The notes beneath the pieces were generated by a model that saw only the letters and a program-made list of their open reading frames with translations, did no database searches and was not told the origin of the DNA. From Planctomycetota bacterium (lineage in GTDB: Bacteria > Planctomycetota > UBA8742 > SKZP01), in the NCBI GenBank assembly GCA_050249295.1, contig JBFWQT010000003.1:1-49558 (forward strand): a DNA stretch of 49,558 nt, written 5' to 3'. Of the stretch, positions 1-19,223 are shown piece after piece. The position numbers and the translations under genes were made by a program. Position 1 is the stretch's first letter; every line of letters begins with the position of its first letter.

Positions 1-88
1 GCTTGCCGAGGGTGGCCTGCACGCCACCGGGGTCGATTTCCTTGTACTGGCGGCGCAGGTCGGCCAGCACGTCCTGTACGGTTCTCAT
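1..88 (-). CDS. N-terminus (partial, runs off left edge) of a probable rhodanese-domain MoeB/MoeZ-type E1-like sulfur-carrier adenylyltransferase
   Basis: Not in the ORF track. Manual translation from ATG at 88 gives MRTVQDVLADLRRQYKEIDPGGVQATLGK..., resembling the N-terminal helix of rhodanese-MoeB fusions. Lies directly downstream of MoaD/ThiS and JAMM genes. Only 29 codons visible. Confidence 0.55.
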   Translation of the reverse strand, partial: MRTVQDVLADLRRQYKEIDPGGVQATLGK

Positions 89-224: not shown

Positions 225-533
225 TCAGTTCGTTGCGCCGCCGGCGATCGCCGGCACGATGCTCAGCACGTCACCATTCTTGACCGGCGTGGTCAGGCCG
301 TCGAGCGTGCGGATGTCGTCCTGGTTGAGGTACACGTTGACGAATCGGCGCAGTTCGCCGCTGTCGCTGTAGAGCCGTTCGCGCAGGCCGCTGGCGCGCT
401 CGCCGAGGTTGGTGAGCACGTCGCCGACGGTGTTGCCGGGGAGTTGCACCTCGGCCTGGCCCTGCGTCAGCGGGCGCAGCGGCGTGGGGATGCGGACGGT
501 GGTGACGTTCGGGTTGGTGGTGGTCGTCGTCAT
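225..533 (-). CDS. MoaD/ThiS/CysO-family ubiquitin-like sulfur carrier with C-terminal extension (…IAGG-ATN)
   Basis: Motifs VRIPTPLR, TVGDVL, RRFVNVYLNQDDIRTLDGLTT, GDVLSIVPAIAGG. ATG at 533 preceded by AGGAG, so the ORF-track start at 623 is too long. Confidence 0.93.
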   Translation of the reverse strand: MTTTTTNPNVTTVRIPTPLRPLTQGQAEVQLPGNTVGDVLTNLGERASGLRERLYSDSGELRRFVNVYLNQDDIRTLDGLTTPVKNGDVLSIVPAIAGGATN

Positions 534-666: not shown

Positions 667-1122
667 TCACTCGGTCACGCGTTCGGGCGCGATACATCGC
701 TCCTCCGCGAACGCGGCGTTGCGCAGCACCCACGAGTTCCACGTTCCGGCCCGGCCCTTCGCGATCTGCAGGATCACGTACGACCAGCTCTCGGCGTCCA
801 CGTTGCCCCACACCTCCTCGGCCCGCGCGCGATCGGTCTCGCTGGGCCGCGACGGGTGGTCGGGGTGGGTGTGGTAGACGCCGATCACCTCGAGGCCCTG
901 CGCCGCGGCGTCGGTTTCAATCTGCAGGTATTGCTGCGGGTCGAGAATGTAGCGGTCGTGTGCGCGCTCGGTGTTGAGGTTGGCGGTCGCGCGGATCTGC
1001 TCGACGATGCGCGCGCCGTCGGCGGTGGTGCGCCCGACGAGGAGGCCGCAGACCTCATGCGGGTAGCCGGCCTCGCCGTGGCGTTGCATCTGCGCGATCT
1101 GGTCGTCGGTGATGATCAGCAT
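667..1122 (-). CDS. M67 family (JAMM/Mov34/MPN+) metallopeptidase, Mec/QbsD-like
   Basis: YPHEVCG glutamate and complete JAMM motif HTH-x7-S-x2-D (HTHPDHPSRPSETD). Start set at MLIITDD (1122); the upstream GQGQ extension is translated microsatellite. Confidence 0.93.
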   Translation of the reverse strand: MLIITDDQIAQMQRHGEAGYPHEVCGLLVGRTTADGARIVEQIRATANLNTERAHDRYILDPQQYLQIETDAAAQGLEVIGVYHTHPDHPSRPSETDRARAEEVWGNVDAESWSYVILQIAKGRAGTWNSWVLRNAAFAEERCIAPERVTE

Positions 1123-1311: not shown

Positions 1312-1962
1312 TCAGCTCAGCTTCTTCTTGTTGAGGTAGAAGTCGAACTTCTCGTCCCAGTTCCCGGCCAGGCGGTTCTCGACATCGGCAGCCGTCTTCG
1401 GCGGCGGCACCACCACGTTCTCGCCGGGCTTCCAGTTCACGGGGCAGGCCACGCTGTGCTTGTCGGCGGTCTGCAGCGCATCCACCAGCCGCACCACCTC
1501 GTCCACGTTGCGGCCCACGTTCAGCGGGTAGTAGACGATCGCGCGCACGGTCTTCTTCGGGTCAATCACGAACAGCGCGCGAACGGTCACGGTGGCGCTC
1601 TCGCCGGGGTGCAGCATGCCGTAGAGGCGGGCCACGCTGCCGGGCGTGTCGGCGATCATCGGGTAGTTGATCTGCACATCGAGGATCTGCTTGAGGTTCT
1701 GCCGCCAGGCGAGGTGGCTGTGGATGCTGTCGATGCTCAGGCCGATCAGCTTCGTGTTGCGCTGGCCGAACTCGCTCTCGCGCTTCGCGAACTCGGTCAG
1801 CTCGGTGGAGCACACCGGCGTGAAGTCGGCGGGGTGCGAGAACAGCACCACCCACTTGTCGCCGGCCCACTCGTGGAAGCGCAATTCGCCGACCGTGGTC
1901 GGCGCCGTGAAGTCCGGCGCCTGGTCGCCGATGCGCGGCAGGGTCAATGCGGTATCGGTCAT
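1312..1962 (-). CDS. Peroxiredoxin, Prx6/TDXH-like subfamily
   Basis: FSHPADFTPVCSTE active site, YYPLNVGRNVDEVVR, C-terminal ACPVNWKPGE; AAGGAG RBS upstream. Confidence 0.95.
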   Translation of the reverse strand: MTDTALTLPRIGDQAPDFTAPTTVGELRFHEWAGDKWVVLFSHPADFTPVCSTELTEFAKRESEFGQRNTKLIGLSIDSIHSHLAWRQNLKQILDVQINYPMIADTPGSVARLYGMLHPGESATVTVRALFVIDPKKTVRAIVYYPLNVGRNVDEVVRLVDALQTADKHSVACPVNWKPGENVVVPPPKTAADVENRLAGNWDEKFDFYLNKKKLS

Positions 1963-2345
1963 GTCATCTCCTTGCGGGTCGTTGTGGTTGATGTGAACTG
2001 TGCGGAAGTCGGTGGCAGATGCTGACGCCGGTGCCGGACGATGCGACGCGCCATGGCGAGGATGCGTGGCGGATTCGACGAACGCGTGAGGGAGTGGCGA
2101 GAACGCCGACAGTCTCTGTGATCAGGAACGGCTTGCAGTGTGTGCCGATTCCGCCAGTCCTGCCGTCCTGTGTCCTGTCTCCGCCCGTCTCGATCGCGTG
2201 CACCGCACAACGCCCTCCGCCAATCGGCGGCAGTGGCGTCAGCAACAACAGGTGCAGGCGAGAGTCATCAACATCGTGCGGTGGCCTGTAGAGGCGCTTC
2301 AGATCAGAAGTAACGCAGGTGTCGCACGCGCAGAGGCACGCGACG
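1963..2345 (-). promoter_or_regulatory. Structured 5' leader / candidate cysteine-responsive attenuator
   Basis: 2228-2244 (last Cys codon, stop and following bases) is complementary to 2020-2036 at 15/17 positions. Inner stem 2067-2079/2144-2156. An alternative local hairpin lies right after the stop. Confidence 0.55.
2239..2274 (-). CDS. Putative cysteine-rich leader peptide MLMTLACTCCC
   Basis: Minus strand reads ATG TTG ATG ACT CTC GCC TGC ACC TGT TGT TGC TGA. Four Cys in the last five codons, in the 5' leader of a sulfur-relay operon. Confidence 0.7.
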   Translation of the reverse strand: MLMTLACTCCC

Positions 2346-2351
2346 GCCCGT

Positions 2352-2379
2352 GGTGTACCTTGCCGCTGTTCGCTGTCAA
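2352..2379 (-). promoter_or_regulatory. Candidate sigma70-type promoter TTGACA-N16-TACACC for the leader/prx operon
   Basis: Perfect -35 TTGACA (2379-2374) and weak -10 TACACC (2357-2352) on the minus strand, about 80 nt upstream of the leader ORF. Confidence 0.45.
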
Positions 2380-2482: not shown

Positions 2483-3844
2483 ATGCCACATCTGAAGCCC
2501 GCCCGCCCGATCCTCGCCTCCCTGCTGCTGGTCGGCGCGCTGCACATTCCGACCGCCACCGTCGTGGCCCAGCCGGGCCCGGCGACTGACCCGCAGCCCC
2601 CGGCCACCGATCCGCAGCCCCCGGCCACCGACCCCGCCGCCGCGTACGCCGCGAAGCTCGACGCCGCCGCCGAGAAGGGGCGCGACTACCTGCTCTCGCT
2701 CTATGGCAAGGATCCGCGCCAGGGCGGATGGGGCCCCGACATGCCGTTCGTCGGTTACAGCGGCCTCGCGCTCAACGGTCTGCTGCGCGGCCGCAAGCCG
2801 GTGTCGGTGAGCGACGAGCGCGTGAAGAAGACGCTCGACAAGCTGATCAGCCAGCAGCAGTTCGACGGCGCGTGGGTCTCGCCGCAGCGTGGCGAGGCGG
2901 TCTACGAGACGTCGGTGATTCTCCGCGCGCTGGTGGCCGCGGCGCAGGCCGACAAGGAGTTTGCCGCGCGCGAGGACGTGCTGTCCGCGATCCGCAAGGG
3001 CCGCGACTACCTGCTGCTCGCGCAGGTGGATGAGCACCCCGAGGTCGACAAGGACGGCAAGGCGATCGAGGGCAAGGTGGATTCGCCCGACGCCGAGGGT
3101 GGCGCGAACTACGGCGGCGTGGGCTACGGTCGCGGCACGCAAGGCACCACGCCGTCGGCCAACATGAGCAGCACCGCGATGGCGATGGAGGCGGTGGACT
3201 CGACGACGGCCGTGATCGGCGAGGACGACAAGCTGAAGGAAGCGCGCAAGAAGCTGCAGAACTTCCTGCGTCACTGCCACAACCTGGCCGAATACAACGG
3301 CAAGCCCTACAACACCGAAGCGACCGACACGCCGCAGGGCAAGGTCGTGCCCGGCAACGACGGCGGCGCCGTGTACGCGCCCGGCCAGTCGAACGCCGGC
3401 ACCACCGAGGGCGAAGGCGGCGTGCGCGTGCTGCGCAGCTACGGCTCGGTGACGTACGCGCTGCTGCAGCTCTATCACATCTCGGGCATCGTCGATCGCA
3501 ACGACCTGCGCATCCAGAAGGCGATGGAGTGGATCACGCGCTCCGAGAACTTCGTCTTCACGTATCACCCCGGCCTGAACCAGGACGACCGCAACAGCCA
3601 GTTTGCCGGCCACTACTACTACCTCTACACCGCGGCCCACACGCTGAGCATGCTGGCCGGCAAGGCCACGCTCGAGGACAGCCGCGGCGAGGAACACAAC
3701 TGGAGCAAGTCGATCGGCGACGTGCTGCTCGGCCTGCAGCAGGCCAACGGCGCGTGGAGCAACCAGAAGAACTCCGCGTACTGGGAGAACGCGCCGATCA
3801 TCGCCACGTCGTACGCCCTGGTCGCGCTCGGCTACCTGCGCTGA
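2483..3844 (+). CDS. Secreted prenyltransferase/squalene-cyclase-repeat (alpha/alpha-toroid) protein
   Basis: Signal peptide MPHLKPARPILASLLLVGAL…AQ, ATDPQPP repeats, QW-like motifs (LISQQQFDGAW, LLGLQQANGAW), DGGAVYAPG, SYGSVTYA, HYYYLY. Confidence 0.8.
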   Translation: MPHLKPARPILASLLLVGALHIPTATVVAQPGPATDPQPPATDPQPPATDPAAAYAAKLDAAAEKGRDYLLSLYGKDPRQGGWGPDMPFVGYSGLALNGLLRGRKPVSVSDERVKKTLDKLISQQQFDGAWVSPQRGEAVYETSVILRALVAAAQADKEFAAREDVLSAIRKGRDYLLLAQVDEHPEVDKDGKAIEGKVDSPDAEGGANYGGVGYGRGTQGTTPSANMSSTAMAMEAVDSTTAVIGEDDKLKEARKKLQNFLRHCHNLAEYNGKPYNTEATDTPQGKVVPGNDGGAVYAPGQSNAGTTEGEGGVRVLRSYGSVTYALLQLYHISGIVDRNDLRIQKAMEWITRSENFVFTYHPGLNQDDRNSQFAGHYYYLYTAAHTLSMLAGKATLEDSRGEEHNWSKSIGDVLLGLQQANGAWSNQKNSAYWENAPIIATSYALVALGYLR

Positions 3845-17826: not shown

Positions 17827-19223
17827 GGCAACGCTCGTGCTTGCGCCGGGGCTCGCACAAGGACCGGCAGCGGTGGCGGCGTGTCACGCGCGGAGTCGTC
17901 GATGATGTTGATGTAGCCGATGCCGATGCACGCCGCCGGCACCACCATTCGCGTGGCGCTGGGCACCATGTAGGCCAGGCCGAAGGCCACGAGGCCGGCG
18001 ATCATGGCGCGTGCCGTCGGCGGTTGCGGCCGGGTGAGCGCGTGCAGGACGACGCCGGCGAGCATCATCAGCGACAGCATGCCGAACCAGCCGTGTTCGG
18101 CCACCATGCGCGTGTACTCGGTGTGTGCCGCGTAGCCCTTGAGGCTCTCGCCGGGACCGACGCCGAACAGGGGGTGGTCAAACCAGATGCGCAACTGCAT
18201 CCACGCCAGCTCGCTGCGATGCGAATCGTTGGTGTCGGTGAAGCGTGTCATGAACGCGCCGCCGGTGGCGTAATCCAGAGCTGGCACGACCACAACCGCG
18301 AGCGTGAGCACGGCCAGCAACAGGCCAACGACCAGGTTCATTCTGGCCCGTGGCGTGCGTGCCATGAATGCGAACGACGTACCGACGCTGAGTACCAGCA
18401 GGTAGAGACCGGTGCGCGAGAAGGTGATCAGGCACTGTGCGGTGAACAACAGAGCCGACGCGAAGAGCAGCCAGCGGTAGGCCCGCGCACGCGCCGGCGC
18501 AAGCAGGCACGCAAACCACGCAATCAGCGCGGCAAACGCCATCGCGGCCGACACCTGGTTGGGCCCGAATCCGCCGCTGGTTGCAAAGTTGGACTCGTTG
18601 GAGAACACAACCTGACTGAGCCCGCCGCGTCCCGCCAGCGTCCACACAATCTGGCCGATCATCGCGAAGGCGGGCAATGCGGCACCGGCGATCACCCGCT
18701 GGAAGCCGGCGTAGTCGGTCCGGCAATGTGAGCAGAGCCATGCCATGAAGAACAGCGCGGCCGGGCCGGCAAGACAGAACGTGGCAGTGCGCACGGCATC
18801 AAGGATGTCGCCATCGGCCATGGTGAGCACCACGGACGGCGTCAACAACGCCACATACAGCAGAGGCAGCACCGGCAGACGCGCATACCCGCGGCGCAGG
18901 ATGGCCACGACCGCGATCGCGATCAGCGCCAGCTTGCCGAACTCCCAACGGATCGGCACCTGGCACATGCGCCACAGGACCTCCGAACCGGTGATGTAGA
19001 AGCACACCGCGATCACGCGAGACGGATGAATCCGCGTCAGGCCGAGGTACAGCGCGAACGTCAGGGCGCACCAGGCGTGCACCTGGCCGATGACCGGCAA
19101 GCGGTGCATGGCAACGCCCAGCACCACATGGAACGCCGCGAGGATCACGAACCACGTCCCGGGGCTCAGGCGCGCGCCGGAGCTCTGGGGCAGGAATTCG
19201 ACAGTCGCGTCGCGGGTGTACAC
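17823..19223 (-). CDS. O-antigen ligase / Wzy polymerase family protein
   Basis: Many TMs, GGFGPNQVS, TFSRTG, HPLFGVGPG, AHTEYTRMVAEHG. Confidence 0.88.
   Translation of the reverse strand: MYTRDATVEFLPQSSGARLSPGTWFVILAAFHVVLGVAMHRLPVIGQVHAWCALTFALYLGLTRIHPSRVIAVCFYITGSEVLWRMCQVPIRWEFGKLALIAIAVVAILRRGYARLPVLPLLYVALLTPSVVLTMADGDILDAVRTATFCLAGPAALFFMAWLCSHCRTDYAGFQRVIAGAALPAFAMIGQIVWTLAGRGGLSQVVFSNESNFATSGGFGPNQVSAAMAFAALIAWFACLLAPARARAYRWLLFASALLFTAQCLITFSRTGLYLLVLSVGTSFAFMARTPRARMNLVVGLLLAVLTLAVVVVPALDYATGGAFMTRFTDTNDSHRSELAWMQLRIWFDHPLFGVGPGESLKGYAAHTEYTRMVAEHGWFGMLSLMMLAGVVLHALTRPQPPTARAMIAGLVAFGLAYMVPSATRMVVPAACIGIGYINIIDDSARDTPPPLPVLVRAPAQARALP

Follow-up and report, generated by a model that had tools for sequence, protein, structure and literature searches.

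Does a short, cysteine-rich reading frame ahead of a peroxiredoxin gene (prx) sense the supply of cysteine and, if so, how would the signal reach the genes downstream? The question arises from a 49,558-nt stretch of a Planctomycetota genome (henceforth the window), in which a minus-strand leader region separates prx from a divergent gene (start at 2483), and in which the order on that strand is Cys leader, prx, mec, cysO and, at the contig end, moeZ (Table 1). The last of these is a probable assignment, based on a weak match to the MoeZ N-terminus (E 0.028) together with the gene order in relatives. Mec, CysO, MoeZ and CysM together make cysteine, and mec and cysO are tied to cysM and moeZ in relatives; we counted the downstream operon as cysteine/sulfur metabolism. 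The source genome (78.5% complete) has a cysM-like gene apart from the prx operon (contig C43 of genome G000, 17828-18730, minus strand), which is 57% identical to the mec-linked cysM of relatives and has no Cys leader in the 900 nt upstream. Inverted arrays of a GGGCAA hexamer were found between prx and mec (1136-1180 and 1240-1280) and similar arrays after cysM on C43, probably representing a genome-wide REP-like repeat. The divergent gene (2483-3844, plus strand) encodes a 453-aa protein that carries a hydrophobic stretch at the N-terminus as well as PQPPATD repeats and matches a squalene-cyclase type only weakly (E 1e-6, well short of the cut-off). No close relative of the source organism was present in the collections searched, the best non-self prx being 76% identical.

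Table 1. Features of the leader region and the prx operon, in window coordinates.
Feature	Position	Strand	Details
Probable promoter	2352..2379	-	TTGACA 2379-2374, 16-nt spacer, TACACC 2357-2352
Leader ORF MLMTLACTCCC*	2239..2274	-	11 codons, putative
Local hairpin H1	2187..2272	-	leader ORF paired with 2221-2187; predicted OFF fold
Segment A (switching strand)	2235..2244	-	last Cys, stop and 4 nt; pairs locally or long-range
Inner CCGCC-GAUU-GGCGG hairpin	2217..2230	-	present in both folds
Segment S (G-rich)	2194..2214	-	3' arm of H1, or partner of 2050-2030 in the rod
Nested stem of the original prediction (2156-2144 / 2079-2067)	2067..2156	-	complementary; minor fold
C-rich, G-poor tract	1975..2110	-	59 C, 30 G; candidate Rho-loading region
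Segment D	2020..2059	-	2029-2020 closes long-range helix with A; 2050-2030 pairs with S in the rod
prx Shine-Dalgarno AAGGAG	1968..1973	-	
prx, peroxiredoxin	1312..1962	-	PRK13189 match above cut-off
mec-like JAMM peptidase	667..1122	-	Prok-JAB match above cut-off
cysO-like ThiS/SAMP sulfur carrier	225..533	-	
moeZ, probable start	2..88	-	cut by contig end; inferred

We examined the putative leader ORF and its surroundings. From the probable promoter, transcription would start near position 2345, which would give a 5' UTR of about 70 nt and a leader that is not leaderless. A strict sigma-70 scan left this promoter-like site unscored, and elements of a similar kind were also found before a paralogous leader on contig C133 and in relatives. 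The ORF has no Shine-Dalgarno sequence in front of it; we infer that it is translated. Its cysteines occupy codons 7, 9, 10 and 11 (i.e., a tail of Cys-Thr-Cys-Cys-Cys with at least two consecutive Cys codons), and two of the four are UGU, a codon that is rare in this genome (TGC 11573 vs. TGT 1027 genome-wide). The ORF is separated from prx by 276 nt. We rejected a relay ORF or a frameshift into either of two spacer frames ending at the prx start, as their GC3 was 0.64-0.66 (vs. 0.96) and they had no Pfam match. An Rfam covariance-model search of the leader returned only two chance-level matches, far below gathering scores. The leader was unchanged in two DNA sequencing runs of one study (one of them possibly the source), and no RNA sequencing runs holding it were listed.

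Leaders of this type recur in the source genome and in its class. Specifically, a short Cys-rich ORF follows 6 of 293 promoter-like sites in the source genome, and two of those six head sulfur operons: the prx locus (contig C3) and a locus with cysH and sulfite reductase (C133). Without the promoter filter, the genome-wide scan was too noisy to use (117 short Cys-rich ATG frames, most of them inside other frames). The C133 leader (start at G000:C133 position 11550, minus strand) encodes 24 aa, contains ACCTC and has a U-tract terminator, a type of terminator that this genome uses. It is followed by a small membrane ORF, a gene that we take to be YeiH-like, cysH, a cysG-like gene and sulfite reductase. 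Pairing is also possible between the Cys codons of this leader and the RNA immediately upstream of the first AUG (-28.7), and is weak given the background (24 of 376 starts).

In one family of the same class, a leaderless Cys ORF precedes mec-cysM at 16 of 17 loci, ends 45-55 nt before the mec AUG and pairs with the RNA just before it. Given that RNAalifold found few pairs in these leaders (none in a first 14-sequence alignment, and 6 and 19 in sub-alignments, with 1 and 3 double changes), we used an alignment-free arm-swap test with three groups defined by leader sequence type, which gave -15.9 kcal/mol for cognate arms, -15.2 within a type and -7.5 between types. In 14 of 16 of these leaders, the start region became cheaper to open on stalling. 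The leaderless ORFs before mec-cysM (loci L201-L216, L230 and L231) are of a CCCR type, with arms that covary with the pre-AUG RNA and with no evident Shine-Dalgarno sequence, and are better covariation material than the window leader; in several, the inner hairpin is also followed by a run rich in U, which may allow weak termination. A covariance model built from four relatives' mec leaders matched four further relatives and had no match to the window leader at E 1 or below, which counts against our best model.

A further group of leaders was found at the cysC loci of class relatives. Among 20 fetched loci (L266-L285), a Cys leader with an intrinsic terminator was present at all 19 that hold cysC, and a second Cys leader lay inside the operon after cysC at 17 of the 19, with a terminator flagged by script in 15 of these, although none of the counts from relatives represent independent events, since the genomes are kin. 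The ORFs at the cysC loci are leaderless and of a Cys/Met kind; in many of them, codons for Met and Cys occur together, a hint that both sulfur amino acids are sensed. Outside these groups, Cys leaders with terminator-like hairpins were found in two Acidobacteriota (L059 and L061, with the order prx-mec-cysO-moeZ-cysM) and before prx- or mec-headed sulfur operons in two further genomes (L219 in G016, L022 in G057), which suggests that this peroxiredoxin subgroup may often be tied to sulfur supply. Our orthologue search covered 61 relatives, 80 genome loci and 80 metagenome loci. Among 190 prx loci, a credible Cys leader was found besides the window only in L022, L059 and L061, all three with terminator-like hairpins; flagged Cys frames before prx at L099, L104, L109, L181 and L194 were judged by eye not to be credible. 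None of the 190 loci (167 with at least 350 nt upstream) had an orthologous long leader, which again counts against our best model, and homology between the window leader and those of relatives is therefore architectural only. Among the matches listed, class relatives (L002, L004, L007-L011 and L019) shared a conserved short element about 70-110 nt before prx, with a tiny frame (MRMRC) that often lies behind a Shine-Dalgarno-like motif.

The second Cys leader of the source genome and the Cys leaders before mec and cysC in class relatives strongly support cysteine sensing, and the window leader is very probably a Cys-codon attenuator. The original prediction had gone further, proposing that the end of the leader ORF couples to the region just before prx through a long-range RNA helix. 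The two arms (2244-2228 and 2036-2020) are indeed complementary at 15 of 17 positions and form the top inverted repeat of the region 1900-2500. The ORF's final Cys codon and its stop lie in the 5' arm, while the 3' arm, placed by the prediction about 60 nt before prx, ends 58 nt upstream of the prx AUG and 47 nt before the Shine-Dalgarno sequence, which the helix does not cover. With the leader as query, 6 of 3000 dinucleotide-shuffled spacers reached 15/17 complementarity, none of 1000 shuffles gave a duplex as stable (-28.7 kcal/mol vs. -17.9 ± 2.4), and equally good pairing with the leader occurred at 1 of 376 other gene starts. The match is thus beyond chance given the leader as query (p about 0.002-0.003); without a fixed query, some 15/17 helix appeared in 12% of 1000 whole-leader shuffles. 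In folding, the 17-nt helix held up in part: its outer 10 bp formed with a probability of 0.56-1.0 in six of seven free folds (0.05 in the seventh), but its inner 5 bp did not exceed 0.17, as they give way to the small CCGCC/GGCGG hairpin, which can form alongside the outer helix. The further stem proposed to nest within it has complementary arms but belongs to a minor fold, with a probability of at most 0.12 in all seven free folds and 0.35 at most among the folds listed.

The same segment had been predicted to form a local hairpin instead, and we found this hairpin (H1) to be larger than first described, with a z-score of -3.04 and an equal in 2 of 200 shuffles. H1 and the long-range fold are both beyond chance. 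H1 reaches as far past the stop as the hairpins of relatives (45-55 nt), and here it is followed not by an AUG but by 225 more bases. That the two folds exclude each other and are set by ribosome position was supported by folding, all structure results being equilibrium predictions. The probabilities of local and long-range pairing of the stop segment summed to more than 0.8 in all 42 choices of fold boundaries; the local fold prevailed in 29 and the long-range fold in 12, and with 5' ends near the inferred transcription start (2340-2350) the local fold won in 20 of 21. The free full-length leader is thus predicted to prefer H1. This dependence of the outcome on the chosen boundaries counts against our best model, as does the difference of only 0.1-3.4 kcal/mol between forced H1 and forced long-range states.

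The predicted switch is a strand exchange between three segments, with A pairing to S in H1, whereas in the alternative fold, a long rod, A pairs to 2029-2020 and S to 2050-2030. In the growing RNA, H1 is predicted to form first and the long-range helix to compete once position 2020 has been transcribed. With RNA transcribed to position 2000 and no ribosome, S paired with the leader ORF at a probability of 0.80, while with a ribosome on the leader (the 3' edge of a ribosome lies at +16 from the P site) and the upstream RNA dropped from the fold it paired with D at 0.56-0.83. With the ribosome at Cys7, the long-range helix formed at a probability of about 1.0. Because a leader-bound ribosome drives the RNA into the long rod, in which the C-rich tract is partly hidden, the long-range helix more likely belongs to the ribosome-occupied (ON) fold than to the OFF fold, as far as these models go. 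Two results count against our best model: the stability of the rod as a whole was unremarkable (z -1.3), and the fold with a ribosome at the stop codon was the same as with a stalled one, so that dwell time rather than position must carry the signal.

What would such a switch act upon? The original prediction left two outputs open, exposure of either a Rho-loading site or the prx ribosome-binding site (RBS), and noted that a U-tract terminator is absent and that the downstream leader is C-rich and G-poor. We found no U-tract terminator in 1100-2600 and no U-run after H1. C exceeds G by 29 over 2110-1975, a value equalled by 3 of 376 gene starts, placing the tract in their top 1%; its last 45 nt contain 20 C and 6 G. 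The source genome has a Rho gene, found as a C-terminal half of 158 aa at a contig end (E 1e-84), which fell below the full-length cut-off because the gene is truncated there. On contig C638 of G000, two rho-like genes lie in tandem, the canonical Rho C-terminal half and a 422-aa Rho-like ORF. The long untranslated spacer before prx likewise counts for Rho. By folding, a ribosome on the leader made the upstream windows of the tract (2100-2001) dearer to open by about 2-10 kcal/mol; opening 2100-2041 cost 19.9-22.1 kcal/mol in H1, 25.7-30.2 in stalled states and 33.1 in the long-range fold. Against Rho count the last windows (2040-1971), in which the opening cost was the same between states, the cost of about 20 kcal/mol per 60 nt even in H1, and the numbers of exposed C, which lay few apart between states and in mixed directions. 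The Rho branch of the prediction is thus plausible and modestly supported. By contrast, the RBS branch found little support: across 35 constrained folds, the cost of opening the prx Shine-Dalgarno sequence and AUG shifted by no more than 1.6 kcal/mol with ribosome position, and the leader-RBS duplex (-14.0 kcal/mol) was at background level (-15.2 ± 4.6 kcal/mol over 376 starts).

Considering this, our best model is that the leader would read cysteine supply through ribosome speed and that two RNA folds would decide on Rho-dependent termination. Plentiful Cys-tRNA would let the ribosome move off the leader, and H1, forming first, would tie up S and leave more of the C-rich tract open, so that Rho would stop transcription upstream of prx or inside it. 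If Cys-tRNA ran short, a ribosome held at Cys7 or Cys9-11 would keep H1 from forming; S would then pair with segment D, which is C-rich, to give a long rod that the long-range helix would close or lock, either while the ribosome is at Cys7 or after it leaves. We regard a Rho-dependent output as just short of an even call, and the specific wiring, in which a three-segment strand exchange couples the Cys codons to Rho and the long-range helix locks the ON fold, as a tentative proposal on the unlikely side. The leaders of relatives, which have intrinsic terminators or start-codon pairing and no evident Rho design, count against our best model.

Alternatively, attenuation may act on translation, with the long-range helix as the OFF state that stalling opens. 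Once the ribosome is released, the helix would close a 191-nt loop and put leader codons 1-10 over the prx RBS, and mec and cysO would follow by polarity. This mechanism was experimentally shown for Ms5788A (10.1101/834739, according to its accessible text), and relatives' mec leaders pair just before the mec AUG with covarying arms. In the window, the Shine-Dalgarno sequence was unpaired at a probability of only 0.23-0.26 in the long-range fold compared with 0.49-0.66 in stalled states, and minimum free energy folds zip the leader onto this sequence and the AUG. However, we rejected this zipping as a designed pairing given the background-level duplex described above, and the opening shifts are small; furthermore, the helix stops well before the Shine-Dalgarno sequence and, with the probable full 5' UTR, free RNA favours H1 over the long-range helix. 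We thus consider a translational output possible but unlikely. It is quite improbable, in turn, that H1 alone matters, as a pause site or a U-less terminator blocked by a stalled ribosome, and that the long-range match is incidental. H1 is significant and extends as far beyond the stop as the hairpins of relatives, and some 15/17 helix turned up in 12% of the whole-leader shuffles; yet the match is significant with the leader as query, D is a second and better partner for exactly the strand used by H1, and no U-tract follows H1 in a genome that uses such terminators. Less probable again is that the rod serves mRNA stability or is cut by a ribonuclease (RNase III-like), with ribosome occupancy of the leader setting its processing: it would indeed be a long imperfect duplex (2244 to 2020), but the long-range helix has no uninterrupted stretch longer than 10 bp. 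Finally, it is very improbable that chance alone produced the ORF and helices in a GC-rich intergenic region, since, although the genome (68% GC) abounds in short Cys-rich frames, mostly inside other open frames, and the leader has neither a Shine-Dalgarno sequence nor a found orthologue, the ORF lies behind a promoter-like site before a sulfur operon, has a paralogue at another, uses rare UGU codons and belongs to a type conserved class-wide.

If our best model is true, it would tie peroxiredoxin to cysteine supply, extend the Cys ribulon to another phylum and provide a reporter-sized test of Rho-coupled cysteine attenuation. Across the planctomycete class, such a ribulon would have three outputs, namely intrinsic terminators (one of them inside an operon), start-codon pairing and Rho. 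A literature search, with most subscription journals outside its reach, found no Cys leader ORF in Planctomycetota and, with preprint supplements not covered, none for the mec-cysO-moeZ sulfur-carrier pathway; demonstrated Rho-dependent cysteine attenuation was likewise not found in the papers searched. The available text of one paper mentions Planctomycetes leader genes with no occurrence of cysteine (PMC4833913), and that of another cites only the mycobacterial case (PMC13236596).

The closest known systems, as described in the accessible text of the sources cited, share several features with the window leader. Like the window leader, the mycobacterial attenuators Ms5788A and Rv2334A (the "Cys ribulon"; Canestrari et al., 10.1101/834739) are polycysteine short ORFs that carry a C-terminal run of Cys, precede a sulfur/cysteine operon, lack an intrinsic terminator and have a Cys/stop region that pairs with distant downstream leader RNA, with several operons per genome under such control. 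Unlike Ms5788A, the window leader is probably not leaderless (leaderless ORFs being found in class relatives), its spacer is 276 nt rather than 97, it is predicted to have two competing folds of similar energy rather than one very stable duplex, and its helix excludes the Shine-Dalgarno sequence, with leader pairing to that sequence only at background level, although the pairing probability of the sequence shifts. In mgtA/mgtL and corA/corL (PMC12360218, a review in whose accessible text "cysteine" does not occur), an upstream ORF (uORF) steers refolding that unmasks a rut site for Rho. As in mgtL and corL (and also tnaC and speFL), uORF occupancy is predicted here to refold a long leader and to hide or expose a C-rich tract, and, as in mgtL and corL, there is no intrinsic terminator; the signal would be Cys-tRNA rather than Mg2+ or an arrest peptide, and the role of Rho is a predicted one. 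In actinobacteria, Seliverstov et al. (2005; PMC1262725) described cys operons preceded by Cys leader peptides that lack terminators, with a Cys run near the stop as in our leader, and proposed Rho-dependent attenuation, for which the Rho strand-exchange reading, if true, would supply a concrete, testable case; that paper found no conserved hairpins and called the prediction weak, whereas two explicit folds are predicted here. A classical Cys attenuator predicted upstream of cysS in Rhodobacterales, uORFC-8-2 (Brewer et al., PMC8632094), also has tandem Cys codons but possesses an intrinsic terminator, which the window leader lacks and its C133 paralogue has. Relative to the classical trpL and hisL attenuators, the window leader is predicted to share alternative structures chosen by ribosome position and differs in having no intrinsic U-tract terminator after it. 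The sensor proposed here is a variant form of a kind that is already known.
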